DNA from: a virus
UHGV virus genome: UHGV-1757948
Direction: 5' to 3' (one strand)
DNA: 20,276 bases
This document shows, piece by piece, positions 1 to 16,162 of this stretch (positions within the stretch are counted from its first letter, which is position 1; each line of letters begins with the position of its first letter). The notes below the pieces were generated by a model. That model was not told the DNA's origin. It did no database searches and saw only the letters and a list, made by a program, of their open reading frames with translations. The translations under genes were made by a program, and so were the position numbers.

Positions 1-1
1 A

Positions 2-3000
2 GTAAGATATAATCAAGAAGAGCATCTTCTGTATGTCAGCAACTATACTTGTAAAGCCGATGATAGCATACTTTATGAAATAAGTGTGGATTTAACAGAC
101 ACCCTGACCGTGTCTCAATCCTCATTCAGAGCACAGCTCGATTCCATAAAAACAGAGATACTTACATCCCTGACTTATGGCATGCGTGGTGACATTTTAG
201 CACAATGCGCGAAGTATTTTCTGCGGAAAGACAGTCCGGACACAGCCTTGGATATTATAACATTCCTCAAAGGGCTGCTTGTGGGAGACGGAGACTACGG
301 CATAGATGCGGACGGTACCGCACGGCTGAAGAAACTTCTTGCCGACGAAGCCACAATGAAAACGCTGACCGTGACAGGAAGGGCACATTTCTTCGAGCTT
401 GTCATAGATGAGCTGAACAGCGTCGGAGGTCAACTGATACTGTCCGCTGCTAACTGCACGGTACGCTCTGTCGAAAGAATAAGCGGAGCATGGCGTCTGT
501 GGTGGCTGGCGGAGGACAGCGACGGCAGAGCCGTGCAGAACATGTGGAAGGTCGGAGACCAGGCTCTGGCAATGACATCCAATCTTGCCGAGGGGACATC
601 ATATGATGCAGGAAACAGACTATGGTGGAGACTTGTCACGGCAACAGGGAGCGGAACACGGAACATTGACGGTGAGGACAGAAAGTGCCATTGGATTGAA
701 GTGTCTGAAGCCACGTGCGCGGCTGACAGCCTTGAGCCTGCAGAGGGTGACAGCGTTTGTCTGTGCGGACACCGTGGTGACGACACAGCGCGCAGCCATG
801 CGATAATAATAGCCGCCCACTCCACTCCGGATACCGAGCTGGAGAGTCCGTCATTCGCGCAATACAACGGAATCACAAGTTTTTCTCTAAGCCAGTACCG
901 CACGACATGGTTCGCGGCTAACGGCAATAAGATAAGAGGCGAGCTGGATGTGGACACTTCCGGTCTTGTCAGCTACACGCACCTTGCATGGGGAAACGGT
1001 CCGGACGACTGGACAAAGGACAAATCCCAGAGCACGGCAAAAGACTGGCTCATGCTCGGCATATGCACAGACCGCACGGAGAGCGACGTGGCTCTCGTCT
1101 ACAGCGACTATGCATGGTCAAGGATTAAAGGTACTGACGGAAAGACCACATACTTCCATGTGAAATATTCTTCAAACGAGAACGGAAATCCCATGACAGA
1201 GACGCCCAACCTCTACATCGGCACATACGTTGACTTCACTGAGGCAGACAGCAACGACCCCTCGGACTACACGTGGTCACGCTTCCAAGGATATGACGGG
1301 GAGCAGGGGATACCGGGGAAAAACGGTACGGACGGAAAGACAAGCTACCTTCACATCAAATATTCCGACGACGGGGGAAAGACGTTCACCGCCAGCAACG
1401 GTGAGACACCGGGTGCGTGGCTCGGGCAATGCGTAGACTTCAACTCATATGACCCGACAAGCGTTACCTCATATAAGTGGACACGGATACGCGGTGAGGA
1501 CGGAGCGGACGGAAGTGACGGTGAACCCGGCACGGACGGGCAGGACGGATTCTCGTGGGCACTTGACCCTGCCGCCATAACATTGGAGGCTGACAGTGAC
1601 GGTGTGGTGAGCATGCAGGATGCGACATCACGTCTGCGCGCATGGCTCGGCACGCGCGAGATGACTGTCACCATTACCGCCATAGAGCCAGTGCACTGTC
1701 TTGCGTCACGCAACGGGGCGCAGGTTACAATAACCGCAATAGGGACATATACGGCAGACTGGGGAGGTTCGGTGCCGTACGGAGCGGGATGGGTGCAGAT
1801 TACGGCACAGGCAACACTGGGAGGAGAGACCCGCAGTGTGAGCTGCCGCCTGTCCTTCACTGTATCGTCCATGGCACTCTCATCGCAGATTAAGGCTGAG
1901 ACGGACAGCATAAGCCTTAAAGTCGGCTATCTTGGGGCAAAGGACGGAAACATGGTGACCACTCCTGACATATTCCTGACAGGGAACGGGAACAAGACAT
2001 ACACAATCGGGGACATGTCAAGCCTGCGCGGAAAGACAATAACGGTATCATGCCTTGTCAAGACCGTATCCGCGGTTCCGGCGGCATCTGGCAACAGACG
2101 TATCGGCATGGAGCCCATGGTACGGTATGCCGACGGCAGCACGCAGTATCTCGGAACATGGAGGCAGATAACATCCACGGACACGTTCGAGGGACGCATA
2201 AGCTCCACACACAGGATACAGGATAAGGCTGTGGCGTCGGTAGAACAGTGTAACCTGTATATACAGGGCATATCATCAGGATACTCGTCCGTATCGCGTC
2301 CAAAGATAGAGACAGGTGCGGACGCGACAGACTGGGGACTCAGCGCGGAGGACAGGCTTAAAAGACCGAATCTTCTTCCAGGAACATCGGACTTCAGCCA
2401 ATGCACCGTACAGGATACCGTAGAGGCAGGAGCATACACGACACCTTACGGAGAAAAAATAAGCGTGGCACACGGTGTGAACGAAGCCGGGACATCATAC
2501 AAGGACGTCATCACATGGCGCAACGTGGTGCCCGAGCCGGGCGTACAGTATACGCTCTCATTCTGGGCGCGCGGCACAGGCAGCATCGGCTCGTACTTCT
2601 ATCCGAACTGCACCGACTGGGTCACAAGTCCGGGGACGAAGAACCAGACAGGTGTGACAGACGGATTCGTACAGTTCACGCTTGAAAGCGGATGGAACCG
2701 CTACCAGGTGACATGGAGCACACGCAACGATGTAAGCGGAGCGAAAAGTCTCATAGCGGCACGGCTCATGCCGGACAGTTCTGCACAGGGAGAGATCTGG
2801 ATATGCGGAGTGAAGCTGGAGAAAGGCAGCGAGGCGACAGACTGGCGTTCGGAGACAATCACGCACGACGAGCTGCAGGCGACAGGAATAGACATTGAGC
2901 ACAAGCGCATAAAGGTCACTGCCGACAACTTCGAGATACAGAACAACTCAGGCGAGACTGTCACCACTGTCGACGAGGCGGGCACCCTTACAGGTGTGAT

Positions 3001-3778
3001 GCTCCGCACTATGGACGAAGGACAGGGGCATGTGGAGATAAAGGGAGGACTGATTGAGGTAAAGAACCCTAACGGTGTGACCAACATCAAAATGGGATAT
3101 AACGGCTCATACATGGTACTGTCATATTATGACAATGACGGTACGTTCCTTTATGACCTCGGACCGTGGGGACTGTCCGGCAAGGATGTCTCGGAAGAAC
3201 GGTGGGAGACCAGCAGCAAATACGGACGCCTGCAGCTGACAGGGACCACATTCTCCACCGTAGGCGACATCGTTGGCAACAAACAGATAATGAACACCAT
3301 ATTCCAATATGGTCATGTGTACACGAAAACACCTTTGTACATGTATCTTGCAGGGCGCGTAAACGACACATATCTCAGCGGTGACTACGCCTCCACTCCG
3401 GAGATTGCAAGAGCCGCGAACGGCAGATGGTTCATGGAGCAGGGTAATGTGACCACGGCACAGGCTGTCACAGGAATGTGGGCGCAGGACAATCCGGAAT
3501 CGTTCATGATAGGCTCGCCTATGGACACACCGCCAATGGACTATACGCGATATGAAGATGACTATGCGGAAAAGGTGGATTTCTCCAGACAATGGTGCTC
3601 GCGCAATGTGTACAGATTCTCGAACATCGGAATCGTACAACCGGGAAGCGGCACCGTATACTACGGCAGCATGATAACGACAACAGCCGTATACATGAAT
3701 TATGACAGGGTGCAGATGATACAGATTAATCGCATTGACGATGATGACACGGACACGAACGGAAACATATATTTATGA
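2..3778 (+). CDS. Phage tail fibre / host-specificity protein with collagen-like Gly-X-Y runs, three ~55-aa tandem repeats and a C-terminal carbohydrate-binding-like domain; likely 5'-partial (first in-frame start is GTG at 86)
   Basis: The frame is open from position 2 to the stop at 3776-3778; the ORF track reports 86..3778 (1230 aa). Gly-X-Y runs (GEQGIPGKNGTDGKT; GEDGADGSDGEPGTDGQDG) are present. Three tandem repeats of the type SY.H.KYS..G...T...GETPG....DF.....DY.W.RI.G.DG resemble host-specificity proteins of Gram-positive phages. The C-terminal segment (YTLSFWARG...GWNRYQVTW...IWICGVKLEKGSEATDW) looks like a beta-sandwich CBM. Confidence 0.8.
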   Translation, partial: VRYNQEEHLLYVSNYTCKADDSILYEISVDLTDTLTVSQSSFRAQLDSIKTEILTSLTYGMRGDILAQCAKYFLRKDSPDTALDIITFLKGLLVGDGDYGIDADGTARLKKLLADEATMKTLTVTGRAHFFELVIDELNSVGGQLILSAANCTVRSVERISGAWRLWWLAEDSDGRAVQNMWKVGDQALAMTSNLAEGTSYDAGNRLWWRLVTATGSGTRNIDGEDRKCHWIEVSEATCAADSLEPAEGDSVCLCGHRGDDTARSHAIIIAAHSTPDTELESPSFAQYNGITSFSLSQYRTTWFAANGNKIRGELDVDTSGLVSYTHLAWGNGPDDWTKDKSQSTAKDWLMLGICTDRTESDVALVYSDYAWSRIKGTDGKTTYFHVKYSSNENGNPMTETPNLYIGTYVDFTEADSNDPSDYTWSRFQGYDGEQGIPGKNGTDGKTSYLHIKYSDDGGKTFTASNGETPGAWLGQCVDFNSYDPTSVTSYKWTRIRGEDGADGSDGEPGTDGQDGFSWALDPAAITLEADSDGVVSMQDATSRLRAWLGTREMTVTITAIEPVHCLASRNGAQVTITAIGTYTADWGGSVPYGAGWVQITAQATLGGETRSVSCRLSFTVSSMALSSQIKAETDSISLKVGYLGAKDGNMVTTPDIFLTGNGNKTYTIGDMSSLRGKTITVSCLVKTVSAVPAASGNRRIGMEPMVRYADGSTQYLGTWRQITSTDTFEGRISSTHRIQDKAVASVEQCNLYIQGISSGYSSVSRPKIETGADATDWGLSAEDRLKRPNLLPGTSDFSQCTVQDTVEAGAYTTPYGEKISVAHGVNEAGTSYKDVITWRNVVPEPGVQYTLSFWARGTGSIGSYFYPNCTDWVTSPGTKNQTGVTDGFVQFTLESGWNRYQVTWSTRNDVSGAKSLIAARLMPDSSAQGEIWICGVKLEKGSEATDWRSETITHDELQATGIDIEHKRIKVTADNFEIQNNSGETVTTVDEAGTLTGVMLRTMDEGQGHVEIKGGLIEVKNPNGVTNIKMGYNGSYMVLSYYDNDGTFLYDLGPWGLSGKDVSEERWETSSKYGRLQLTGTTFSTVGDIVGNKQIMNTIFQYGHVYTKTPLYMYLAGRVNDTYLSGDYASTPEIARAANGRWFMEQGNVTTAQAVTGMWAQDNPESFMIGSPMDTPPMDYTRYEDDYAEKVDFSRQWCSRNVYRFSNIGIVQPGSGTVYYGSMITTTAVYMNYDRVQMIQINRIDDDDTDTNGNIYL

Positions 3779-3800
3779 TAAAAAAACAGGAGGACAGTAT

Positions 3801-3908
3801 ATGACATTGACAACATTGAACTTTTCCAAGACCGGAGGCTTGTGGCATGCGGAATGGACACATGGCGGTGAGGGAATATTACAGATAGACGGTGAGCCGG
3901 AACAGTAA
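3801..3908 (+). CDS. Small hypothetical protein (35 aa)
   Basis: An ATG preceded by a canonical SD (cAGGAGGacagtatATG) lies in the gap between the two tail-fibre genes. The ORF is too short for the 60-aa track and has no recognisable motif. Confidence 0.35.
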   Translation: MTLTTLNFSKTGGLWHAEWTHGGEGILQIDGEPEQ

Positions 3909-3924
3909 AGAAAGGAGACAGACC

Positions 3925-4578
3925 ATGAGACGTATAAGAATAGGAAACGACATCATTCTGCGCATAAGGCTTACACGCCGTGGCGGTGCAGAGAACCTCG
4001 AGGGAAAGAAAATAGGTCTTATGCTGCGCAACATTCTCGGCAGTGTGAGCCTTCTTGTAGTACAGTCAGGAGGGGAGCTGATAGCAGGATGGCAGGGCAC
4101 ACAGCAGCAGTGGACAGGTGCGTATACAGTGACACTCACAGAGGATTGGGGCGAGAACAACCGCAACACCGTGGATGAGGCATGCGCCTTCGAGCTTGTG
4201 TCAATAAGCAGCGACGAGGGTGTGGAGACCGGCACCGTGAACATCGAGCTTGACATGGACATCAGCGTGCCGGGCAACGGTCTGTCCGCCTATGAGATAG
4301 CCGTGCTGCACGGCTTTGAGGGCACAGAAGAAGAATGGCTGGAGAGTTTAAAGCCCGACACGAGTAATTTTGTGACAACCGAACAAGTAGCGGAAGACTA
4401 TCAGCCAAAGGGAGATTATGTTACAGAAGCACCTAAGGATGGGAAAAACTATGTACGGAAAGATGGAAGCTGGACTGAGTTTGCAGGAAGTGGAAAAGCT
4501 AATGCCTTTTTTTCGAATAATATCCTTAAATTTGAGAGCGGAGGAGCACAATTTAACAACAACATATTAATAATTTGA
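3925..4578 (+). CDS. Phage tail-fibre protein (BppU-like N-terminal motif; C-terminal YQPKGDY repeats)
   Basis: The start ATG at 3925 has an SD (aAAGGAGacagaccATG); the track's 3892 start lacks an RBS. It contains GNGLSAYEIAVLHGFEGTEEEWLESLK, the characteristic SAYEIAV-GF-GTE-EWL-SLKG motif of Gram-positive phage tail-fibre/baseplate proteins. A sharp GC drop at ~4340 occurs inside the gene. Confidence 0.7.
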   Translation: MRRIRIGNDIILRIRLTRRGGAENLEGKKIGLMLRNILGSVSLLVVQSGGELIAGWQGTQQQWTGAYTVTLTEDWGENNRNTVDEACAFELVSISSDEGVETGTVNIELDMDISVPGNGLSAYEIAVLHGFEGTEEEWLESLKPDTSNFVTTEQVAEDYQPKGDYVTEAPKDGKNYVRKDGSWTEFAGSGKANAFFSNNILKFESGGAQFNNNILII

Positions 4579-4580
4579 TT

Positions 4581-5315
4581 ATGTCAGAAAAAATTAGCCA
4601 AATTCAGATTAACGCCGACGTCAGAGATATAGAAGACGCGCAGGCATTACACAAAGGTGATAGTTTAGGCACAATAAATGGACAGTCTTTTAATGAAGGT
4701 AATGACTTAAACATTGAAGTTGGTACCAATGATTACAATGCCCTTAAAAACAAGCCACAAATAAACGGACATGAGTTGTCTGGGAATAAATCAGCAAAAG
4801 ATTTAGGCTTACAAGAAGCAGGTGACTATGTAACTCCCGAAGATATACCCGATGTGAGCGAACTGGCAACAAAGACAGAATTGGCAGAAGGACTGGAAGG
4901 CAAGCAGCCAAAGGGTGATTATGCCACAAAGGCAGAAATACCAGATGTGAGTGGATTTATTACCTCTTCACAAGCGGAAGAAAAATATCAGCCGAAAGGA
5001 ACTTATGTCACCACGACTGAACTATCTAAAAAGGCAGATAAAATCGCAACCGAAAATGTAGCCGAAACTACAAAGGAATTGCAACCGAACAAGTATTACA
5101 TATTTGGCGAAGTTGCCACACTTACCATAACTCTTGCAGCAGGAGAAGAAAATGTCCTTGCTGAATACATGTTTGAGTTTACAAGCGGCACAACTCCAAC
5201 AATATTGTCACTGCCCGAGGACGTTAAATGGATAGGTGAAAGCACGATTGAGGCAAGCAAGACATATCAAGTGAGCATCGTCAATAATATAGCAGTCATG
5301 GGAGGTGCAGCATGA
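4581..5315 (+). CDS. Phage tail-fibre repeat protein
   Basis: The ATG at 4581 lies just after the stop of the preceding gene. The protein has repeated YxPKGDYVT..IPDVS motifs (E.YQPKGDY / KQPKGDYATKAEIPDVS / KYQPKGTYVTTTEL) shared with the C-terminus of the preceding protein. The coding sequence is AT-rich. Confidence 0.6.
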   Translation: MSEKISQIQINADVRDIEDAQALHKGDSLGTINGQSFNEGNDLNIEVGTNDYNALKNKPQINGHELSGNKSAKDLGLQEAGDYVTPEDIPDVSELATKTELAEGLEGKQPKGDYATKAEIPDVSGFITSSQAEEKYQPKGTYVTTTELSKKADKIATENVAETTKELQPNKYYIFGEVATLTITLAAGEENVLAEYMFEFTSGTTPTILSLPEDVKWIGESTIEASKTYQVSIVNNIAVMGGAA

Positions 5316-6001
5316 GCATATACAGACGCAGGCTTATGATAGCCAACACACTTAAAAAGAGTGACAGCAACATAAATTATCCTGGACTTATTGCAGCATG
5401 GTCGGCAGCAGGAAAGAGCAATGACGATGCTGATAGAAACGTGTTGCACGATTTGACGGGTAATGGGCTTGACATTACGCTGAACGGCTTTGCGTTCAAT
5501 ACAGAAGGAAGTGGCTATGGACATCCCGAATACCCCGATGCTCTTGTCTTTGACGGAGTGGATGATTACGGTATTAATGAGGAAATGCCGATATTGACTG
5601 ATTATACGGTTATTGTTAAGAGAGAAATATTTAGTGGCGGATTATATTCTCATGTAATCGGAAAACGTACAGGCTCTATACCGGGAGCTTTTTGGTTTGA
5701 AAGAGGTAAAGGAGATACTCATAGCTTTGGAATGGCTAATTCAATCAATATATTAAATGAAAGTATATCTTGGCAGTCCACGACAAGCTATAACGGGACA
5801 CCTATAGAAAAAGGTGAAGCTGAGGATATTCATGAATTAACGATAGGTGTAGCAAGCAAAACATATCCAGATTTTAGGGGTATGGCTTTCTACTCCGCCT
5901 ACCTCTTTGACCGCTCATTGGGTGAGCAGGAGATAAAGTCATTTATTAGAAAGTATATAGACGCAGACTATCTGTTACCGAGTGAACAAACAACAGAATA
6001 A
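5312..6001 (+). CDS. Putative receptor-binding protein with a concanavalin-A/LamG-like lectin fold
   Basis: The ATG overlaps the upstream stop (ATGA) and is preceded by GGAGG. The beta-rich composition and the pattern (LVFDGVDDYG...TVIVKRE...GAFWFERGKGDTHSFGM...TIGVASKTYPDFRGMAFYSAYLFDRSL) are typical of jelly-roll lectin domains at the distal end of tail fibres. This assignment is inferred from composition and pattern only. Confidence 0.45.
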   Translation: MSIYRRRLMIANTLKKSDSNINYPGLIAAWSAAGKSNDDADRNVLHDLTGNGLDITLNGFAFNTEGSGYGHPEYPDALVFDGVDDYGINEEMPILTDYTVIVKREIFSGGLYSHVIGKRTGSIPGAFWFERGKGDTHSFGMANSINILNESISWQSTTSYNGTPIEKGEAEDIHELTIGVASKTYPDFRGMAFYSAYLFDRSLGEQEIKSFIRKYIDADYLLPSEQTTE

Positions 6002-6006
6002 AGAAT

Positions 6007-6663
6007 ATGAGATTTATTATAGCAACAATAGCACAAGCAAAGGCGCACGGAATTGAGATTATATCGACAATGCGCCAATCAGTGGATAAGACACAAGTAG
6101 TGTTCCACGAAGAATATGTAAAGAACATTGACGAATTTAATGCCTTAAAGAGGTATGAATTTGATGATGCTGAATTTACAGACCTTATGGCAAGTGAAGC
6201 ATGGACACACGGAGAAGATTATGTGCAGCCAAATGAGGACTTTGCAAAGGTATTAGCCATGCAGATATTGACAGCAGACACAAAGGCGCAGATAAACACC
6301 ATGTCGCTGTCTAACAACGAGGCTCTGAAAGTTAAGGAGTTTTATCCCGAATGGAAAGAAGGAATTGACGTCAACAAAGGCGAAAAGTACAACTGTGACG
6401 ATGACCTTTGGGAAGCACTTACAACGCATAAGACGCAGGCGAATTGGCGTCCGTCTTTGGAAACCGCATCTATATGGAAACATATTGACGAGGAACATGA
6501 GGGCACAGAGGACGACCCGATACCATACGCACCGCCTATGGAGTTGTTCAACGGTAAATATTACACGCAAGACGAGGTAAAATACAGGTGTACCCGTGAC
6601 AGCGGAATACCTTTGTCACAGAACCTGAGTGAACTTGTGGGATTATATGTGGAACTTGTTTAA
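6007..6663 (+). CDS. Hypothetical protein (acidic, tail-fibre-associated; function unknown)
   Basis: A 218-aa ORF with coding-like composition, on the same strand and in the same AT-rich cassette as the preceding tail genes. Confidence 0.5.
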   Translation: MRFIIATIAQAKAHGIEIISTMRQSVDKTQVVFHEEYVKNIDEFNALKRYEFDDAEFTDLMASEAWTHGEDYVQPNEDFAKVLAMQILTADTKAQINTMSLSNNEALKVKEFYPEWKEGIDVNKGEKYNCDDDLWEALTTHKTQANWRPSLETASIWKHIDEEHEGTEDDPIPYAPPMELFNGKYYTQDEVKYRCTRDSGIPLSQNLSELVGLYVELV

Positions 6664-6680
6664 TTTAAAAACCAAAGACT

Positions 6681-6944
6681 ATGAAGGAAAAAGTTATCAG
6701 ATTCGTGACAAACAGATGGTTCGGCTTCGTGGCAGGACTGGTAATCGCAATGCTGTACATGTGGCAGGAACAGAGCCTCGGCAGCGTCAACGCGTGGATA
6801 ATGGGAATCATCACACCTATGCTCTTCGGAGCGTTCGCCGAGGTGGTGAGACATGTCACCACGGAGGACACGTACAAGTGGAAGAACCTGCTGTGGTGGC
6901 TCGCGGGAGCTGTCATTGGAGTAGTGGCGATGCTTGTGGTTTGA
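6681..6944 (+). CDS. Holin-like small membrane protein (3 predicted TM segments)
   Basis: An 87-aa protein with three hydrophobic stretches (WFGFVAGLVIAMLYMW; AWIMGIITPMLFGAFA; LLWWLAGAVIGVVAMLVV) and charged termini. It lies immediately upstream of a second small membrane protein and the amidase. Confidence 0.5.
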   Translation: MKEKVIRFVTNRWFGFVAGLVIAMLYMWQEQSLGSVNAWIMGIITPMLFGAFAEVVRHVTTEDTYKWKNLLWWLAGAVIGVVAMLVV

Positions 6945-6956
6945 TTCCCGGCATCC

Positions 6957-6983
6957 AGGGCAGGGACTCATATGCCCTGCCCT
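6957..6983 (+). promoter_or_regulatory. GC-rich hairpin (9-bp stem AGGGCAGGG/CCCTGCCCT, 9-nt loop) between the two holin-like genes
   Basis: The inverted repeat is seen directly in the sequence. There is no clean U-tract downstream, so it may be an attenuator or processing element rather than an intrinsic terminator. Confidence 0.3.
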
Positions 6984-7026
6984 ATCATTTGACTTGATGT
7001 ATGTACGAATAAAAAAACAAGGGAGA

Positions 7027-7260
7027 ATGAACAAGATTATAATGTGGTTTAAGACAAGCAACCGATGGAAGCATCTGCTTGGCGGTCTGATTATCGGTAT
7101 GGGAGCGGATGATATATACTGTGCGGCATACGCAGGCATAGGCGTTGCGGCAGCCCTTGAACTGAAAGACAGGCAATGGGGCGGCAAATGGGACTGGACA
7201 GACTTCGGGCTGACAACAGCCGGAACAGTTGTGGGACAATGCATAAGGATGATGATATGA
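7027..7260 (+). CDS. Small membrane protein (second holin/antiholin candidate)
   Basis: The start is placed at MNKIIMWFK, which has a partial SD (aAGGGAGaATG); the track ORF begins at 6934 but has no RBS. Two hydrophobic segments are present (LLGGLIIGMGA; IYCAAYAGIGVAAAL). The stop overlaps the next start (ATGA). Confidence 0.45.
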   Translation: MNKIIMWFKTSNRWKHLLGGLIIGMGADDIYCAAYAGIGVAAALELKDRQWGGKWDWTDFGLTTAGTVVGQCIRMMI

Positions 7261-7865
7261 ACGAGGTACAAAGCACATTGGAGGTCGCAAAAGGCATAAG
7301 CGACTATGGGATAATGATAGTCATCTGCGCGGTGTTCCTGCTGCTCGCCTCAGGTCTGATGATTGCGTGTTTCCGCTGGTTCAAATCAGCGATAAGCAAC
7401 ATAATATCCTACACTGACGAGCTGCGCGAGCTTAACGGAAAGCTGGAAAACAACAACCACGTCATGGTGACGATAGCGGAGGGACTGATGCCTGAGACAC
7501 AACTGCGGATAAAGAACATATCCGGAGCGTTCTTTGACCTTGCGGTGGAGAAAGTATGCAGACTCCTGAAGAAAATAAGGGAGGAGAACCATATAGCCGA
7601 CAAGGAAAGGACAAAGGCTAAGATACGCACCCTGCTGAGCAACATGTATGAGGACAGGAACAGCAAGTTCGACAATTTCCATTACCGTGGGAAAAAGCTC
7701 TCGGAGTACTGCAATCCGGAATGGACAGAATGGGTGGCGAAAGTAATAGAGGGAGAGCTGTACAATGAGAACGGTGCGAACAACGGAAGAGCCTACACCA
7801 ACGTCAGCGCAGTATATGACAATATAAAATTGGACTTTTATCACAGAATGACAGACCAGATATGA
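7257..7865 (+). CDS. Signal-anchored (single N-terminal TM) protein of the lysis cassette; function unknown
   Basis: The start ATG at 7257 overlaps the upstream stop (ATGA), whereas the track start at 7176 overlaps the previous gene by 85 nt. There is one TM segment (IMIVICAVFLLLASGLMIACF) followed by a soluble, charged, helical domain. Confidence 0.5.
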   Translation: MNEVQSTLEVAKGISDYGIMIVICAVFLLLASGLMIACFRWFKSAISNIISYTDELRELNGKLENNNHVMVTIAEGLMPETQLRIKNISGAFFDLAVEKVCRLLKKIREENHIADKERTKAKIRTLLSNMYEDRNSKFDNFHYRGKKLSEYCNPEWTEWVAKVIEGELYNENGANNGRAYTNVSAVYDNIKLDFYHRMTDQI

Positions 7866-7895
7866 CGATAAACGCATTTTACAACATTATAAATC

Positions 7896-8489
7896 ATGGA
7901 AAAGTTTAAAGTTATACTTGATGCGGGACACGGAAGGGACACCGCAGGGAAACGTTCGCCTGACGGACGCCTGCTCGAATACGCATACGCCCGTGAGATT
8001 GCAGTGCGTCTTGAAAGGGAACTCAAGGCACGTGGATATGACGCGCAGCGCATTGTGCCCGAGGAAAACGACATCTGCCTGAAAGAGCGGTGCGAAAGGG
8101 CAAACAGAATTTATGCCGCGACAGGAAAGAAAGCGATACTTGTCTCAATACACTGTAACGCGGCTGGTGCCGACGGCAAATGGCATGACGCCAGAGGATG
8201 GTCGGCTTATGTCTCGCGCAACGCTTCAAAGAAGAGCAAAGAGCTCGCCTGCCGTCTGATTGACGCGGCAGAGACACAAGGACTGAAAGTCCGAAGATAC
8301 TCACAGGATGAGCCATATTGGACACAGAATCTCGCAATATGCCGTGACACAAATTGTCCCGCAGTCCTGACTGAAAACCTTTTTCAGGACAACCGGGAGG
8401 ACGTGGACTATCTGCTGAGCGAGAAAGGCAAGCGAACCATTGTGGAGCTGCACGTGGAAGGCATCATGGCGTACTTGGGGAAAGTGTGA
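7896..8489 (+). CDS. N-acetylmuramoyl-L-alanine amidase (Amidase_3/CwlA-type endolysin)
   Basis: It carries the diagnostic Amidase_3 motifs: ILDAGHG.DTAGKRS, E..YA..IA, SIHCNAAG and LTENLFQDN.ED.DYL. It follows the holin-like genes. Confidence 0.85.
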   Translation: MEKFKVILDAGHGRDTAGKRSPDGRLLEYAYAREIAVRLERELKARGYDAQRIVPEENDICLKERCERANRIYAATGKKAILVSIHCNAAGADGKWHDARGWSAYVSRNASKKSKELACRLIDAAETQGLKVRRYSQDEPYWTQNLAICRDTNCPAVLTENLFQDNREDVDYLLSEKGKRTIVELHVEGIMAYLGKV

Positions 8490-8515
8490 GCTCGTTTCCA
8501 AAATGGAAATAACTG

Positions 8516-8544
8516 ACGACAGTTGCAAATTCCGCAACCGTCGT
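8516..8544 (+). terminator. Imperfect hairpin downstream of the amidase gene (possible terminator without a U-tract)
   Basis: ACGACAGTTGC-aaattcc-GCAACCGTCGT forms an 11-bp stem with one mismatch, ~25 nt after the amidase stop. No T-run follows, so the assignment is weak. Confidence 0.25.
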
Positions 8545-8647
8545 AAAGGCGTTCTTTGACATTGTGGGTTGCCGTTAAAAATACAATATTTTCGAAAAAT
8601 TATATACAATTATTTTGGGAAATTATATATCTTTGCACAATATAAGA

Positions 8648-8669
8648 AGCCCTTACGGCAATAAGGGCT
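8648..8669 (+). promoter_or_regulatory. Hairpin AGCCCTTA-cggcaa-TAAGGGCT immediately 5' of the ATG at 8673, inside an AT-rich 180-bp intergenic region
   Basis: A perfect 8-bp inverted repeat ends 3 nt before the start codon and would occlude the translation-initiation region. The surrounding region (8490-8672) is AT-rich and promoter-like (TATATACAAT, TATCTTTG). Confidence 0.3.
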
Positions 8670-8672
8670 GAA

Positions 8673-9302
8673 ATGACAGACGGTGTGCCCGTCTTAAATT
8701 TAAATTATATGGCAAAGATAAATAATAATTTTGAGAAACGAAAACGCATCACGAAAAATGAAGCGTTGGAACTGCTAAAAGATTGTTATGAGGACATCTT
8801 CAAGGCGTATTACGCAGGTCTGGAAAATTACAATGAAGAAATAAATATGACCATACCTGAAGCAAGGACAAGGCTTGTAGGTCCTTTGCTTAACGCAAAA
8901 ATAACAGAGAGTTTCATTCTCACATTTCCCGAGAACTGGAACAAAGGCAAATACGGAAGGATAATATTCAGATGGAACGGTGTGCTCATGCTCATCAAGA
9001 AATTGAACAAGAATGACAAGCCGTCTTACATTCCGACAATACTTTCAGATTCGATTGTCAACCAATACCAATTACCGCTTTTCCAAGGCGATGAAGGCAA
9101 GGAAGAGCCGATATTGATTTTCGGATATACAAAGGACGGTTTCGGGCAGCTCGTAAACCCGAGAATTGTCTTGTATGACGATGGGGTTCAATGGACTGCC
9201 TATATGGAAGACGGTGTAAATATGCCGACTGCCAATACAGACACGCAGGAGATTATTGTCCGCCTGAAAAAGAAAGAGACAGGAGAAAAGAAGGCAGAAT
9301 AA
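8673..9302 (+). CDS. Hypothetical protein (209 aa, low GC, no SD; alternative start at M13 = 8709); unknown partner of the HTH-ImmA regulator
   Basis: A long ORF with coding-like composition on the same strand as, and 52 nt upstream of, the HTH-ImmA gene. No recognisable motif was found. Confidence 0.5.
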   Translation: MTDGVPVLNLNYMAKINNNFEKRKRITKNEALELLKDCYEDIFKAYYAGLENYNEEINMTIPEARTRLVGPLLNAKITESFILTFPENWNKGKYGRIIFRWNGVLMLIKKLNKNDKPSYIPTILSDSIVNQYQLPLFQGDEGKEEPILIFGYTKDGFGQLVNPRIVLYDDGVQWTAYMEDGVNMPTANTDTQEIIVRLKKKETGEKKAE

Positions 9303-9354: not shown

Positions 9355-10410
9355 ATGAAATGTGAGCAGCTAACATTCGCAAGGGAATACAGGGGATTTA
9401 CGCAAACCGCACTCGCGGCAAAAGTCAAAGGGCTATCGCAATCCAACCTGTCAAAATATGAAAAGGGGTTTGGCGGGCTGTCAGACAACATGCTTAGTTT
9501 GATTATGTCCACGCTTGATTTTCCGATGAAATTCCTTGACATGAATATTGTGAACAAGGTTGACAGCAAGCATTACAGGAAAAAGGCAACCATAACCGTA
9601 AAGACACGCAACGAGATAGACAGGACAATATCCCTGATTGCGTATTGTTTTGATTGGCTTAGTGAATTTGTCGAGATACCTGACTATTCATTTGGATACT
9701 ACGACATGGACAACGGCATAAGCCCGGAGGAACTTGCCGGGCACATAAGGAACAAATACAGGCTCGGCATGTCGCCTATATCCGATATTTGCAATTTCCT
9801 TGAGCGCAATGGGGTATTCATTTACATGTGGGACAGTCCTAACGACGAGTTTGACGGGGTATCCCTGATAACTGACGCAGGCAATCATCTTATCATTGTG
9901 AACAGGAACAGAAGCAACGACAGGGTAAGGTTTACGCTTGCACATGAGCTGGGACACATACTGATGCACGAGTGCCCAAGTTTCCCGGTATTCAGCATTA
10001 GAGACAAGGAGAAAGAGGCGAACGCTTTTGCATCAGAGTTCCTTCTCCCCTCCCAGGCTGTCAGAAACGCCTTGCACAATGTCAGGCTCGGACAGTTCCC
10101 TGAGCTGAAACGGTATTGGCTTGTTTCCATGGCATCACTTTTGGAAAAGGCAAAAAACATAAACGCCATTGCAAGTGAGAAGTACAAGTCTATGAGAATG
10201 GAGTTCAGCAGACGCCATTGGAATAAGAAAGAACCTTACGAAGTGCCTATTGACAGCCCTACCGTCTTTGAGCAGGCATATAGGCTGGTATCGGACACAT
10301 TGGGGTATTCAATCAGCATGATTTCGGAAAGCACAGGCTTGCCCGAGGATGTCTTGATAAAGATATTCGGCAAATCTGCGAGGATAATATCATTAAAGCC
10401 ACTAATATAA
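9355..10410 (+). CDS. XRE-family HTH fused to an ImmA/IrrE-family (COG2856) zinc metallopeptidase
   Basis: The N-terminus has an HTH_XRE signature (FTQTALAAKVKGLSQSNLSKYEKG). The central region has the HEXXH zinc motif in ImmA-like context (FTLAHELGHILMHE). Confidence 0.85.
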   Translation: MKCEQLTFAREYRGFTQTALAAKVKGLSQSNLSKYEKGFGGLSDNMLSLIMSTLDFPMKFLDMNIVNKVDSKHYRKKATITVKTRNEIDRTISLIAYCFDWLSEFVEIPDYSFGYYDMDNGISPEELAGHIRNKYRLGMSPISDICNFLERNGVFIYMWDSPNDEFDGVSLITDAGNHLIIVNRNRSNDRVRFTLAHELGHILMHECPSFPVFSIRDKEKEANAFASEFLLPSQAVRNALHNVRLGQFPELKRYWLVSMASLLEKAKNINAIASEKYKSMRMEFSRRHWNKKEPYEVPIDSPTVFEQAYRLVSDTLGYSISMISESTGLPEDVLIKIFGKSARIISLKPLI

Positions 10411-12187: not shown

Positions 12188-12934
12188 TCACTGCGACGCG
12201 CACTCGCTTTCAAGCTCGTTCCAATCCTCGTCGGTAATGTATTTGCGGCATTCAGGATTAAGCTTCAACGCCTCATAGCCGACACGGTTGAGGAAACGCT
12301 CGCTCGTCAGCTTCTTCTCTATGATACGGAAGGCGAGCATGGCGTTGGCGTCCTTGTTCAGGTCTATGGTTATCCCGTCCTCGGTCTTGCATATCATGTC
12401 CGCAGCCTGCTCAAAATGGTAGAGGGTGCGTGACAGCCGCGCAGGATTCATGTATTTGTCAAAATGAATGCCGGGCGCGGCTTCGTCAGCCGTCTTTATC
12501 TGCACATCGTAAAGATGTACCGCGTATGCCAGAAGATTGCGGGCGGTCTCGACATAGGACTTAAGCTCCGTTTCGGTCTGCCTGTACTTGTCGAGCAGCG
12601 ACTTTATGGAGAAGCGCAGGATGTCGACATGCGGCTGTATGTCCTCCTCCACTGTGTCAAGATAGTCATAGAAGAGCTGCGTGCGGTCTCCGAAGTTCTG
12701 GATGTGAAGCTTCTCGTAGGCGTAGTACGCCCTCTCCGCTTCCCTGATGTGACGCTTCAGAGTGAAACGGTAGTACGGTGTCTTCCGTACTCTCTCTATG
12801 GCGTCGAACATTGTCTTGCCCGCCACTGTGTTGGCGGCTCCTATAACAAGGTTGACGAGTGAGTTGAGACGCTCGAACACCTCCATCGCGCGCTGGCTGC
12901 TCACTGCCGTAGCCTGTCGTACGTATGCTGTCAT
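12188..12934 (-). CDS. Hypothetical protein (248 aa)
   Basis: A perfect SD (aAAGGAGGtcagcaATG) precedes the start at 12934. It is GC-rich (~55%). No recognisable domain was found. Confidence 0.55.
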   Translation of the reverse strand: MTAYVRQATAVSSQRAMEVFERLNSLVNLVIGAANTVAGKTMFDAIERVRKTPYYRFTLKRHIREAERAYYAYEKLHIQNFGDRTQLFYDYLDTVEEDIQPHVDILRFSIKSLLDKYRQTETELKSYVETARNLLAYAVHLYDVQIKTADEAAPGIHFDKYMNPARLSRTLYHFEQAADMICKTEDGITIDLNKDANAMLAFRIIEKKLTSERFLNRVGYEALKLNPECRKYITDEDWNELESECASQ

Positions 12935-13191
12935 TGCTGACCTCCTTTCTTCAAATCATTCAAAGCCTTGTCATTGCAGCTTTTACAAAACAATTTATTG
13001 AGAGTTCCTTTTAGCATGACTAAATAGACATCATCGTCATCCTTGAACTTGCGGTTGCAATTAAAACAAAGCCTTTGAACATAAAGCCCTATACTTTCTC
13101 TCGACTTGCGGAACTGCCAGAATTTCAAGAATGGCTTATCAACAGCGTTTAGTACCTCGTATTCACGTTTGGTGATTTTCACTACTTTCAT
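12931..13191 (-). CDS. Small zinc-ribbon protein (CxxC...CxxC)
   Basis: An SD (gAAAGGAGGtataaaATG) is present and the stop overlaps the downstream gene start. It has CFNC and CKSC pairs. Confidence 0.5.
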   Translation of the reverse strand: MKVVKITKREYEVLNAVDKPFLKFWQFRKSRESIGLYVQRLCFNCNRKFKDDDDVYLVMLKGTLNKLFCKSCNDKALNDLKKGGQQ

Positions 13192-13562
13192 TTTATACCT
13201 CCTTTCAGTAGCTCTGGGTTGTCGTGGATGTTGCCGATTATCGTTGCTTTATCGGTAGGAAGGAAGCCTAATCTTTCAATACCTCCGATAAAAGAGCATT
13301 CAGAATCACTATATTCCACATCCACAATATCTCCGTCTGGAAATTGAATAATATCCCCTTCGTAAATCTCCTTCCCCTTTTTATCATACAAGCCTGTGAA
13401 CTGGCTTACGGTGGAGGGGGCGATTTCTCGTTTCCACACGGCATTAGAGCTGTCGCTCTTTTCGAGAATGTTGCAGTCTCCGTCCGCCCATATTAAAAGC
13501 GAACCATAGCACCACTCATCGTTTGCAAGGCGTTTGCCTCTGAACTTGATTGCTCGTTTCAT
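13188..13562 (-). CDS. YopX-family phage protein
   Basis: MKRAIKFRGKR...WCYG...VSQFTGLYDKKGKEIYEGDII...IIGNIHDNPELL matches the YopX (SPbeta) family pattern. An SD (gAAAGGAGGtgcggtcATG) is present. Confidence 0.7.
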   Translation of the reverse strand: MKRAIKFRGKRLANDEWCYGSLLIWADGDCNILEKSDSSNAVWKREIAPSTVSQFTGLYDKKGKEIYEGDIIQFPDGDIVDVEYSDSECSFIGGIERLGFLPTDKATIIGNIHDNPELLKGGIK

Positions 13563-13903: not shown

Positions 13904-14068
13904 TTATCTTGTGATTTTAGAGGAAATTTTCCTTGTATTTCCTTTGTTTTCCTTTGCCAAACACTCATTGCCACATCTTCTGCCCACGTCGTACTTATCG
14001 CACCATCCGTCTCCGTAGAAGCCTTCGTTAATGAAGTGGATACATGAGCCGCAGTGTCTTGCTTTCAT
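13904..14068 (-). CDS. Small Cys-rich zinc-ribbon-like protein (54 aa), translationally coupled to the PP-loop enzyme gene
   Basis: The translation is MKARHCGSCIHFINEGFYGDGWCDKYDVGRRCGNECLAKENKGNTRKISSKITR. Its ATG overlaps the upstream stop as ATGA at 14065-14068. It is absent from the 60-aa ORF track. Confidence 0.35.
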   Translation of the reverse strand: MKARHCGSCIHFINEGFYGDGWCDKYDVGRRCGNECLAKENKGNTRKISSKITR

Positions 14069-14982
14069 TTTTCGTCGTCTTTAAATTCAAATTTCTGTTG
14101 CAGGAACTCGTCAGCGTAGAACTGCTTGTAGCTCTTGTCGCTTATCCACCACCTAAAGCCTGTTTCAGCGTCGTTGAAATTGTGGTCGATATATCCGTTG
14201 TCTATCAGCCATTGGATTGTCTTTATCCAATTGCGTTTGACGTGCGGCCAGCGTTTAGCATCTTCCTTCTTTATCCGTGCGTTCGACATAGGGCAACAGA
14301 TGCAGCCAATGCGTGTATAACCCTCGTCGTAGAGTTCGCAGTGTGGTATGCCGTTCATGTTAAGGAACTCCCACACGTCGCGCTCCGTCCAATAGATTAT
14401 GGGCGATACAAGGATTTTGTCCTTACCGCCGACACACGCAACCATGCTCTCCTCATGTTCGCTCCATTGGTCAAAGGTTTCCTCATTGCGCTTGCCCTTT
14501 ATCTCTGTGGATATTTCCTCACGTTTTGCACGCCGTGCGCTTTCTTCTTTTCTCACACCGATAAGTGTCACCTTGCCAACGCCTGACGTTTCCTTGAACT
14601 CGGCACAACACCAACGCAAAGTCCTTGTCGGCAAGATGTGCTTTTTCTTCGCCATTTCGTAAATGCTCATCCGTGGTTTGATTAGCTCCACATCGGGGTA
14701 TTGCGTCTTGACGAAGCGGATGACTTCGGGCGGGTCTATGCTCGTAAGGTTCATGTGAGCCTTGAAGCGGACACCGGCCAGCTTTGCGACATGGTAGAGG
14801 CATTGGCTGTCCTTGCCGCCACTGAACGCAAGGTAAAAGCCGTTTTCGGGGTCGAGGCGCAACGCCATTTTCTCCGACTTCCGCAAAAGTTCGACGGAGT
14901 GTTCCAGCTTCCTTGCAAGCGGACGGCTTACCTTTGACATTACGGTGTCGTGGTCAAGCAGTATTATTTCACACGCTTTCAT
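14065..14982 (-). CDS. PAPS-reductase family / PP-loop ATPase protein (DndC/IbrA/CysH-like; tRNA-thiolase-like alternative not excluded)
   Basis: It has the PP-loop FSGGKDS, the RWCCAEFK motif and a C-terminal GCICCP Cys cluster. Its ATG at 14982 is coupled (ATGA) to the upstream small ORF. Confidence 0.8.
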   Translation of the reverse strand: MKACEIILLDHDTVMSKVSRPLARKLEHSVELLRKSEKMALRLDPENGFYLAFSGGKDSQCLYHVAKLAGVRFKAHMNLTSIDPPEVIRFVKTQYPDVELIKPRMSIYEMAKKKHILPTRTLRWCCAEFKETSGVGKVTLIGVRKEESARRAKREEISTEIKGKRNEETFDQWSEHEESMVACVGGKDKILVSPIIYWTERDVWEFLNMNGIPHCELYDEGYTRIGCICCPMSNARIKKEDAKRWPHVKRNWIKTIQWLIDNGYIDHNFNDAETGFRWWISDKSYKQFYADEFLQQKFEFKDDEK

Positions 14983-15113: not shown

Positions 15114-15260
15114 CTAATCGTCTACAATGGCTTTTGCTAAACCGAAGAGAAGGATATATATTCCTAACATGAGCAGTACCCATGGGAAACTTGTCAACAT
15201 CCATATAGAGGCTGCCACGCAAAGTGCACCGGCATGGATGATTAGTTCAGTTCTGTTCAT
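15114..15260 (-). CDS. Small membrane protein (48 aa)
   Basis: The translation is MNRTELIIHAGALCVAASIWMLTSFPWVLLMLGIYILLFGLAKAIVDD. Its ATG overlaps the radical-SAM gene stop as ATGA. Confidence 0.3.
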   Translation of the reverse strand: MNRTELIIHAGALCVAASIWMLTSFPWVLLMLGIYILLFGLAKAIVDD

Positions 15261-16162
15261 TGCTTCATATTTTTAAGTTTGTAACTATTCTCATTAAGCC
15301 ACTTTTGGAAATACCATAACTGACCGCATCCGCCACCTATATCGTCTTGCCCTGCCGGGTTAAATACTCTCGTATTAAAACCTACGTCATTCATCTTTGA
15401 ATTAAAGTCACGGATTAAGTCAAGTTGTCGCTGTATTGATGAATGTACACTTTCATCCTTTTCGCAAATAACAGACAAAGTGACCTCCCATATATCAGGG
15501 TTAAATAATTCAGAGAGCCTCATAGCATCTTCCATATCATTATTCCCGACATGTACGCAATAATTAAAGAAAGGCTTTCTTCCGACATAAGAAGCCCAAA
15601 ACTCACCCGTAGAAGCTATTTGCCGAAGTGTTGACGTATTCGTTGCTATAAGTTTCTTCCTTTTTTCATCTGTACTTTCATGTACTGAAAATTGAAGACC
15701 TACTTTATCTATTTCTTTCGATAGTGCAATAAAATCAGACATGTATAAATACATCATGTGAGGGGCAGAAGTGCTTACAAGAAGTTGTGCGTTTGGATAT
15801 TTCACATGTAGACTTTCTATTGCAGGCTGCAATGCCGAGTAGTTGTAAAAAGGCTCTCCCATGCTCATAAACATAATTTGGAACTTTTTAATGTCATCAG
15901 TGCGGCAATCAATAGTAGATAATGCCCCATCAATCTGTTGTATTATTTCGTCAGTAGAAAGATTTCTGACAAAAAATTTGCCTGTTCCGCAGAAAGAACA
16001 TCCAACTGGACAACCGCTTTGAACCGAACAACATATAACTGTCCTTTTTTTGTATTCTCCATATCTATAAAGAACAGTTTCAGCAATAGCATTTGGCTTG
16101 TCCCACTCAAACACGAATTTCTTTACATTCGTATCACTTGATTCAAATACTTTTGTTTTCAT
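15257..16162 (-). CDS. RlmN/Cfr-family radical SAM methyltransferase homologue, minimal form lacking the N-terminal accessory domain
   Basis: The radical-SAM CX3CX2C is in RlmN context: ICCSVQSGCPVGCSFCGTG versus RlmN LCVSSQVGCALECKFC, including the upstream catalytic Cys. It also has FMSMGEPFYN (versus MGMGEPLLN), LVSTSA and the C-terminal catalytic motif DIGGGCGQL (versus DIDAACGQL). The gene is strongly AT-rich (~38% GC) relative to its neighbours. Confidence 0.85.
   Translation of the reverse strand: MKTKVFESSDTNVKKFVFEWDKPNAIAETVLYRYGEYKKRTVICCSVQSGCPVGCSFCGTGKFFVRNLSTDEIIQQIDGALSTIDCRTDDIKKFQIMFMSMGEPFYNYSALQPAIESLHVKYPNAQLLVSTSAPHMMYLYMSDFIALSKEIDKVGLQFSVHESTDEKRKKLIATNTSTLRQIASTGEFWASYVGRKPFFNYCVHVGNNDMEDAMRLSELFNPDIWEVTLSVICEKDESVHSSIQRQLDLIRDFNSKMNDVGFNTRVFNPAGQDDIGGGCGQLWYFQKWLNENSYKLKNMKQ

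Follow-up and report, generated by a model that had tools for sequence, protein, structure and literature searches.

Does the abrupt change in base composition inside a tail-fibre gene of the virus genome UHGV-1757948 mark a site at which the distal part of the tail has been exchanged between phages? An earlier note on this DNA had described a high-G+C gene that switches to low G+C directly after a conserved motif, SAYEIAV...EWLESLK, and had proposed this motif as a recombination linker. In the window, i.e. the whole stretch of 20,276 nt that was analysed, G+C amounted to 53.7% in 86-4345, 41.2% in 4346-6663 and 49.7% in 6664-8489, with maximum-likelihood change points at 4365 and 6718. The four gene calls made earlier for this locus (3925-4578, 4581-5315, 5312-6001 and 6007-6663) were all matched. 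Within the first gene, G+C and GC3 fell from 0.55 and 0.63 (3925-4344) to 0.38 and 0.32 (4345-4578), and the step at ~4330 (0.193 in a 300/300-nt comparison) is the largest of the window, confirming the abrupt drop and showing that codon usage is not uniform across the junction. As described before, low G+C continues through the next three genes, with GC3 values of 0.34, 0.36 and 0.45 compared to 0.61 in the upstream tail gene. Since GC3 falls within and after the gene 3925-4578, the shift affects synonymous sites and goes beyond amino-acid content alone. The segment 4346-6663 ranks 11th lowest in G+C among 1796 stretches of 2318 nt, and near-equal steps at 8480 and 12910 indicate that the contig is generally mosaic. 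Two details of the earlier description had to be revised: a G+C of ~58% before the junction holds for the last ~250 nt only (57-62%), the upstream part of the gene having 55% overall, and the low G+C does not end sharply before the holin gene, the recovery being gradual (0.44-0.48 over 6150-6900).

The features of the locus and its flanks are compiled in Table 1. The large tail gene, which gave weak Collagen and CBM_4_9 matches, is 96-97% identical at the nucleotide level to its counterparts in the sister genomes L002-L004 and forms the backbone of high G+C that precedes the junction. The sisters are longer by ~1.2 kb between window positions 3902 and 3889, and the 35-aa ORF retains the N-terminus (MTLTTLNFSKTGG..) and the final residues (GEPEQ) of their protein. 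On the other side of the low-G+C genes, the gene of the 87-aa protein has a GC3 of 0.70 and lies upstream of an Amidase_3 endolysin at 7896-8489.

Table 1 Features of the tail-fibre locus and the genes next to it (window coordinates)
Feature	Position	Strand	Basis
Large tail/host-specificity-like protein, 1230 aa	86..3778	+	PHROG: tail, tail-fibre, host-range proteins
35-aa ORF	3801..3908	+	Remnant of 448-469-aa gene intact in sisters L002-L004
217-aa fibre/adaptor gene with junction	3925..4578	+	ORF and gene calls
N-terminal anchor domain, predicted beta-sandwich, lineage-specific, high G+C	3925..4281	+	AF2, weak fold matches, sister identity
Conserved motif LSAYEIAVLHGFEGTEEEWLESLK, recombination junction region	4282..4353	+	78 viral loci; crossovers among sisters
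Crossover interval of the window's graft, 28 nt, GAGGGCACAGAAGAAGAATGGCTGGA	4317..4344	+	Sister comparison
Foldon-like element GDYVTEAPKDGKNYVRKDGSWTE	4411..4479	+	Pfam Fibritin_C (sub-threshold); phmmer
YQPKG(D/T)Y-coding repeat, three copies (4385-4431, 4888-4934, 4972-5018)	4385..5018	+	Direct-repeat family D1
244-aa distal fibre protein	4581..5315	+	450 homologues
229-aa ConA-like lectin-fold protein, candidate receptor-binding component	5312..6001	+	AF2 and Foldseek
218-aa conserved accessory protein of the cassette	6007..6663	+	Amino-acid identity in relatives; PHROG
87-aa hydrophobic protein, holin-like (inferred); backbone resumes	6681..6944	+	Sister similarity; position

Comparison with the sister genomes revealed that the two sides of the step have separate relatives, as the earlier note had expected. 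L002, L003 and L004 are 96-97% identical to the window upstream, lose all similarity inside the 72-nt motif (LSAYEIAV..EEEWLESLK) and continue with unrelated distal parts. The more diverged sister L091 behaves in the opposite way, with 92% identity up to 4317 and 98-99% beyond (91.9% in 3925-4345 and 98.1-98.7% in 4346-5315; Fisher p = 6e-8). At the protein level, the first 128 aa of the 217-aa protein are conserved in the sisters (95-98% identity in L002-L004 and L097-L100) and the distal part is not. The compositional step is therefore a real recombination junction. The motif itself is a patchwork: the window tracks the backbone type (L002/L003/L004) up to 4301-4313 and L095 up to 4344, and it differs from L091 and L094 through 4316 and is identical to both from 4317. 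Crossovers were placed at ~4281, ~4301, ~4314, 4317-4344 and after 4344, i.e. at least four crossover points lie within one motif, the window's own at 4317-4344. The alternative cassettes that the earlier note had proposed to look for at this junction were found as well, in the form of four distal types (proteins of 720-732 aa, 553-564 aa, 346 aa and 217 + 244 aa) which part ways within 4281-4353. L095 carries another shaft, which is joined again to the end of the foldon-like element exactly at YQPKGDY, and YQPKGDY is a second junction motif. A single sharp right end of the cassette was not found: similarity to the sisters resumes at 5163, at 5887-5997 or, in the case of L002, L097 and L098, at 6664.

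Viral loci that carry the motif number 78 and range from 26 to 75% in G+C; AF2 predicts two short helices for the motif. At synonymous sites the motif follows the G+C of the respective genome (r = 0.77, 73 loci), and its conservation is confined to the protein level. A breakpoint test over the 78 loci placed a break at the motif in the window's lineage only; in two other phage lineages similarity extends past the motif and is lost 300-840 nt further on, and a junction role is therefore assigned to the window's lineage only. Thus, the idea of a recombination linker is borne out in so far as crossovers fall inside the motif in this lineage, but a dedicated or universal linker it is not. No paper quoting SAYEIAV..EEEWLxSLK was found in a literature search on the motif strings. 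By inspection, many other motif carriers have collagen-like sequence after the motif.

The free variation of the synonymous sites and the later breaks in the other lineages would both suit an illegitimate exchange, in which breakpoints cluster since selection retains chimeras joined at a domain boundary and the motif sequence plays no part. Against this stand the distinct crossovers within 72 nt, each of which falls within a stretch of identical nucleotides, and the joining of one and the same cassette type at differing points (L097 versus L002/L098; the window versus L091/L094). Together they give the pattern expected of homologous exchange. Furthermore, the backbone and the L005-type phages are 81-88% identical over 90-100 nt at the motif (window versus L005: 81% over 100 nt). 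We regard an illegitimate exchange as possible but unlikely.

Instead, we consider it very likely that, in this contig of a human-gut phage, homology-guided recombination brought an exchangeable distal set from a phage lineage of lower G+C onto a lineage-specific anchor. The anchor would comprise the upstream tail genes plus residues 1 to ~120 of the 217-aa protein, and the distal set the foldon-like end, the 244-aa fibre, the 229-aa ConA-like lectin protein and the 218-aa accessory protein. The incoming set would have crossed over in the 28 nt (4317-4344) that encode part of the two-helix motif, and a donor lineage of roughly 40% G+C would account for the sudden fall of both G+C and GC3. The motif may have been kept for a structural reason; its limited codon choice would then leave short near-identical runs of DNA between otherwise unrelated phages, and its location at a domain boundary would make chimeras joined there viable. 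Such a structural role is a guess since the model of the 217-aa protein is of low confidence (pLDDT 61). Further short conserved segments (YQPKGDY; the C-terminal domain of the fibre plus the N-terminus of the lectin protein; the 218-aa gene) may split the cassette into independently swappable pieces. The transfer was probably in this direction, and its pathway would be one of homologous recombination. A direct donor was not found, the homologues of the 244-aa protein with more than 80% full-length identity all being members of the same phage lineage. Also unlikely is the wider proposal that the ~24-aa SAYEIAV..GFEGTEEEWLxSLK is a pan-phage "universal joint" which, together with YQPKGDY and the C-terminal domain, moves a multi-gene host-recognition cassette across unrelated gut phage lineages, including from TAG-recoded phages of ~99 kb and 30% G+C to standard-code phages of ~50% G+C.

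The proteins encoded downstream of the junction were then considered one by one. In the low-G+C graft, the foldon-like element is the first unit that can be recognised; it scored 17.9 bits (E = 0.0036) with Pfam Fibritin_C, below the 21-bit cut-off; phmmer against the PDB gave E = 9e-8 to chains with two copies of the T4 fibritin foldon and 5e-4 to 1e-3 to the fibritin chains themselves. It is not a C-terminal cap, as 32 residues follow, and it is internal to the fibre in P0022, P0046 and P0053. Many of the homologues of the 244-aa protein are stand-alone proteins of 142-170 aa and others are fused to anchors; its C-terminal domain, which makes up the final ~100 aa (5016-5315; KELQPNKYYIFGE..VSIVNNIAVMGGAA), is shared widely. 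A frameshift artefact as the cause of the 217/244 split was rejected since all carriers share the split and stand-alone homologues are common. The 229-aa protein, modelled by AF2 with a pLDDT of 89.3, is a predicted beta-sandwich jelly-roll that matches known lectin and CBM domains (Foldseek: trans-sialidase lectin domain, BoNT Hc and GH43 CBM; E = 1.8e-7, TM 0.53-0.58), and the label "lectin-like" given to 5312-6001 in the earlier note is supported by the predicted fold. Among its 216 homologues (219-401 aa), the N-terminus is conserved and the body varies. The 218-aa protein has 70-93% amino-acid identity to its counterparts in L003, L004, L080 and L081, matches PHROG 27545/30034 (function unknown) and is 25% identical (E = 7e-7) to a protein of Enterocloster phage PMBT24 annotated as "ChiA1-BD-binding domain protein". 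In Pfam, the 244-, 229- and 218-aa proteins and the alternative cassettes had no matches even at E <= 1. Position and fold suggest that the distal proteins determine host range.

The fibre C-terminal domain, the lectin protein and the 218-aa protein have counterparts in phages with a G+C of 40% and 30%, and the three-gene unit was found in L005 (40% G+C) as well as in L080 and L081 (30% G+C). Cassette carriers span 30-54% G+C, with TAG-recoded phages among them. The GC3 of the C-terminal domain amounted to 0.58-0.63 in L003 and L004, 0.34-0.36 in the window, 0.37 in L005 and 0.26 in L080 and L081. These values bear on a second alternative, in which the low G+C is not foreign and receptor-binding genes are A+T-rich by amino-acid composition or codon tuning. 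Indeed, the alternative cassettes are all below the backbone in G+C (29%, 32-46%) and low-G+C patches exist elsewhere on the contig, but GC3 halves inside a single gene, past the motif no similarity between the sisters and the window is left, the identity to L091 rises abruptly at the junction, and L003 and L004 encode the same domain at higher GC3. Native A+T-richness is thus already contradicted and is very improbable. Very improbable as well is a metagenome assembly chimera, in which the assembler joined two phages at the shared motif. The motif is common to many phages and the contig has a coverage of only ~3.5x by its name, but at least six independent assemblies from the human gut share gene order and junction, the identical arrangement being present in ENA, JGI, NCBI and Logan assemblies that differ in samples and assemblers (including contigs of 43-71 kb). 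One 71-kb ENA scaffold, L083, matches 16.7 kb of the window at 100% identity, and the cassette also sits on the diverged backbone of L091, L093 and L094. The junction arrangement is not an assembly artefact. Finally, a programmed host-range switch deserves next to no credence: invertible segments and diversity-generating retroelements both typically target tail-fibre loci, but unlike the Gin and Cin segments of Mu and P1 the locus has no flanking inverted repeats (the sole pair is 15 nt long and 87% matched) and no recombinase was recognised within the window by family matches, and unlike diversity-generating retroelements it has no template/variable repeat pair and no long direct-repeat pair in 3700-7000, with neither an invertase nor a reverse transcriptase domain among the Pfam calls for the contig genes.

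Regarding relatives and hosts, megablast and blastn searches of GenBank phages with window 1-9000, 4346-6663, L080 and L005 as queries gave no match. The portal protein is just 24-32% identical to portals of Bacteroides phages, Shine-Dalgarno use is mixed, and one scan of species genomes for the 218-aa family turned up just one remote match, from a Faecousia MAG (48% across half of the protein). Sister prophages lie on contigs of 276 kb (ERZ827088 NODE_10) and 121-127 kb (ERZ779888 NODE_81 and ERZ28660569 scaffold_71). The cultured phage PMBT24, which carries related genes, infects E. bolteae and has 33% G+C in the locus. The G+C content of E. bolteae is ~49%, and low phage G+C therefore need not imply a low-G+C host. 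The earlier note had spoken of hosts of different base composition; the difference seen here is one between the phages themselves, given as the G+C of the cassette carriers.

In sum, the locus is a natural case, resolved to the base pair, of uncultured gut phages re-equipping what is probably their host-recognition apparatus, with a defined crossover motif, a defined set of four genes that can be exchanged, and several natural alternatives on a single backbone. In the engineering of chimeric receptor-binding proteins, junctions of this kind are practical points at which to design the fusion, and they call for caution in the prediction of phage hosts from tail-fibre similarity or local composition. 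The exchange of tail-fibre cassettes is an already known route of host-range change, and the current understanding of phage mosaicism is unchanged by this case.

How does the locus compare with known systems? The tail fibres of P2, Mu, P1 and lambda are reportedly mosaics, and receptor-binding depolymerases of Klebsiella phages have a conserved N-terminal anchor and exchanged distal parts. Like mosaic tail fibres, the locus has a lineage anchor and, from one common junction on, distal parts that are unrelated among the sisters, and its distal module recurs in otherwise unrelated, divergent genomes, discordant with the backbone; unlike the named mosaics, the junction is a different motif, SAYEIAV..EEEWLxSLK, and the cassette consists of four genes and is itself subdivided. 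In the host-specificity genes of Streptococcus thermophilus and lactococcal phages, collagen-like repeats are said to flank the variable region as recombination sites. Short conserved repeat-coding DNA within a fibre gene would be the crossover site here as well, but it is one helical motif plus YQPKGDY repeats and not Gly-X-Y. GDYVTEAPKDGKNYVRKDGSWTE aligns with the T4 fibritin foldon (PF07921), from which it differs by its score and its location away from the extreme C-terminus. The 217-aa protein may resemble TP901-1 BppU (ORF48), which has a beta-sandwich N-domain, a helical linker and a trimerising end with a separately encoded receptor-binding protein; the strands of the modelled anchor domain lie at aa 2-113 (pLDDT ~70-87) and its fold matches are weak and not significant (4v96 and 3uh8, E = 0.009-0.02), and there is no sequence similarity to BppU. 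A shared host-recognition module has also been described for Alteromonas phages (PMC10579305). The locus of the window is a well-documented case of the known modular exchange of tail fibres.

The window is a complete metagenomic contig of 20,276 bp (ENA ERZ1310104 NODE_1063), of which 16.7 kb match the 71-kb scaffold L083 from human gut with 100% identity. Its G+C content is 53.7% in 86-4345, 41.2% in 4346-6663 and 49.7% in 6664-8489; change points in G+C were placed by maximum likelihood at 4365 and 6718. The earlier note had described a G+C switch at ~4340 inside a fibre gene and low G+C through the following three genes. Indeed, GC3 within gene 3925-4578 is 0.63 in 3925-4344 and 0.32 in 4345-4578; it is 0.34, 0.36 and 0.45 in the three genes that follow and 0.61 in the gene of the 1230-aa tail protein. 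The gene calls of the note also agreed with ours. Since GC3 drops along with G+C, the shift is carried by synonymous sites. The biggest 300/300-nt G+C step of the contig lies at ~4330 and, of all its 2.3-kb blocks, 4346-6663 has essentially the lowest G+C. Comparably large steps are found at 8480 and 12910 and, therefore, the contig is mosaic in general. The falls at 8480-9300 and 12910-13350 (steps 0.187 and 0.173) are probably further mosaic boundaries; one of them comes before gene 8673-9302, which is low in G+C and itself lies immediately upstream of a Peptidase_M78/HTH (ImmA-like) gene (9355-10410). A PAPS-reductase-family gene (14065-14982, minus strand) and a weak radical-SAM-family gene (15257-16162, minus strand) in the early region are possibly parts of a module that modifies DNA or nucleotides.

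When viral contigs were searched with the 140 N-terminal aa as query, four close relatives and one at 61% were found, and a metagenome scan added another four close ones. The sister phages L002, L003 and L004 share 96-97% identity with the window across the tail gene and for ~400 nt into the fibre gene, but all similarity ends at 4338-4359, to restart at 5163/5887/5997 in L003 and L004 and at 6664 in L002. In its place, ORFs unrelated to the window follow the motif. The reverse was found for L091, a carrier of the window's foldon-type cassette: its backbone is more diverged (91.9% identity in 3925-4345), whereas identity after the junction is 98.7% in 4346-4578 and 98.1% in 4581-5315 (Fisher p=6e-8). 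Hence the two halves have different relatives and alternative cassettes occur at the same junction, as the earlier note had expected. Similar backbones with different cassettes and different backbones with similar cassettes, joined at a shared boundary, show that the compositional step at the motif is a recombination junction.

Motif, alternative distal types and GC3 of the C-terminal fibre domain
Feature	Position or carrier	Description
Motif LSAYEIAVLHGFEGTEEEWLESLK	4282-4353	within fibre gene 3925-4578
Distal type	L002, L097, L098	one 721-732-aa ORF after the motif, 29% G+C, unrelated to window
Distal type	L003, L004, L099, L100	553-564-aa ORF after the motif, unrelated to window
Distal type	L095	346-aa ORF after the motif, unrelated to window
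GC3, C-terminal fibre domain	L003/L004 (sisters, backbone-like)	0.58-0.63
GC3, C-terminal fibre domain	window	0.36
GC3, C-terminal fibre domain	L005 (40%-G+C phage)	0.37
GC3, C-terminal fibre domain	L080/L081 (30%-G+C phages)	0.26

A nucleotide alignment of ten sequences revealed the motif to be a patchwork. The window is of the backbone type to 4316 and is identical to L091 and L094, two carriers of the foldon cassette, from 4317; this places its crossover in a shared stretch of 28 nucleotides, 4317-4344. The A+T-rich version of the motif starts at ~4281 in L091, L094 and L097, L002 and L098 switch at ~4301, L003 and L004 diverge at ~4314, and the switch in L095 falls after 4344. One cassette type can have different join points (L097 versus L002/L098, the window versus L091/L094), and such variation is the expected outcome when homologous exchange acts on a short stretch of similarity. 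At the motif, the backbone lineage is 81% identical to L005 over 100 nt, and L002 is 88% identical to L005 over 90 nt. L095 has a second junction, where the foldon-type end is rejoined by a shaft of the type found in the homologue P0009 exactly at YQPKGDY, a repeat present in three copies in the window.

The motif was seen in 78 viral loci with 26-75% G+C; every codon is used in it, and its synonymous positions track the G+C of the genome (r=0.77). Its conservation is therefore one of protein sequence, presumably tied to a structural role. When these loci were compared all against all, breaks at the motif appeared only in the window's lineage; in two other lineages similarity runs through the motif and breaks 300-840 nt beyond it. 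The proposal that the motif is a linker for swapping thus stands for the crossovers inside it in the window's lineage, but not for a dedicated or universal role; the comparisons mark it as a site at a domain boundary that crossovers use opportunistically. A literature search for the motif strings returned no paper quoting it.

The model of the 217-aa protein comprises a beta-sandwich N-domain (pLDDT ~70-87), the motif as two short helices and a low-confidence tail; the best fold matches were to BppU, the baseplate adaptor of TP901-1 (N-domain), and fell short of significance. Residues 163-185 resemble the T4 fibritin foldon. Since this element is not at the end of the protein and occupies an internal position in homologues, it was treated as a foldon-like shaft unit. 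It is followed by 32 low-complexity residues, FAGSGKANAFFSNNILKFESGGAQFNNNILII (4480-4578), which are varied or shorter in relatives (P0002 stops at ..KFES), at their end loosely recall ..VSIVNNIAV.. from the end of the shared C-terminal domain and may be a recombination scar. That domain, terminal in the 244-aa protein, was found in 450 proteins, frequently stand-alone (142-170 aa); in others it is joined to the same anchor including the motif (P0009, P0011) or is part of a fusion that lacks the motif (P0015, P0020). A frameshift artefact as cause of the 217/244 split was ruled out, the split being present in every carrier. In L005, two consecutive fibre genes (4472-5989 and 5992-7482) both end in this domain, with 36% and 63% identity to the window's. 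For the 229-aa protein the model is a confident one (pLDDT 89.3) and predicts a ConA-like jelly roll, matching the trypanosomal trans-sialidase lectin domain, botulinum toxin binding domains and a GH43 carbohydrate-binding module. In its family the N-terminal ~60 aa and the C-terminus are conserved and the body is variable, with lengths of 219-401 aa among the database homologues listed and up to 676 aa in locus L080; we infer that it is the main receptor-binding component. The 218-aa protein shares 70-93% aa identity across carriers and is distantly similar to a protein of Enterocloster phage PMBT24 annotated as carrying a ChiA1-BD domain.

The protein sequence of the C-terminal fibre domain is near-identical across carriers, but GC3 of its coding DNA differs. 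The simplest reading would be that the L003/L004 type is long resident and that the window's cassette was imported later from a ~40%-G+C lineage, the L002 cassette deriving from a source of still lower G+C. No sequence came up as a direct donor, and the close homologues of the 244-aa protein are all from the window's own phage lineage. PMBT24 has 33% G+C and infects E. bolteae, whose G+C is ~49%; phage G+C is therefore a poor proxy for host G+C. The carriers L080 (1-12312) and L081 (1-6657) are regions of IMG/VR contigs of 98.8 and 57.9 kb with ~30% G+C. Judged from their reading frames, they appear to translate TAG as an amino acid: with TAG read through, open frames of at least 150 codons cover 0.92/0.90 instead of 0.41/0.34, and the 149-aa fibre gene has an in-frame TAG that is aligned to a Gln of the homologue P0025.

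Variation was also seen next to the cassette. A 35-aa ORF (3801-3908) is the leftover of a 448-aa gene intact in L002-L004 (L002 4626-5972), ~1.2 kb being absent between a pair of short repeats that resemble GAGCCGGAAC and both contain ..EPE..; the ORF is present in every examined foldon-type carrier except L094, which has no gene call between its 837-aa and 217-aa genes. The length of the large tail protein (86-3778, especially ~1135-1420) differs strongly between relatives, through gained or lost repeat units of ~90 aa (..TYFHVKYS..DPSDYTWSR..) that have collagen-like linkers: the window has 1230 aa, L002/L003 have 1526+ aa, L093 has 2351 aa, and L091 has 3010 aa in a fusion that includes the gene upstream. 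A second swapped segment, 6923-7925, lies between the holin-like gene and the endolysin: L003 and L004 keep 96-97% identity to the window throughout, and L002, L097, L098 and L091 have weak or no similarity and encode other small proteins.

In sum, the locus follows the classical pattern of modular tail-fibre evolution, as known from the fibres of P2, Mu and P1, the variable regions of S. thermophilus phages flanked by collagen repeats and the anchors of Klebsiella RBPs. The host-recognition module shared among Alteromonas phages (PMC10579305) is another example. Particular to the present system are the motif itself, with several crossovers finely mapped within 72 nt, the subdivision of the four-gene cassette and its spread across phages of 30-54% G+C, apparently TAG-recoded ones included.
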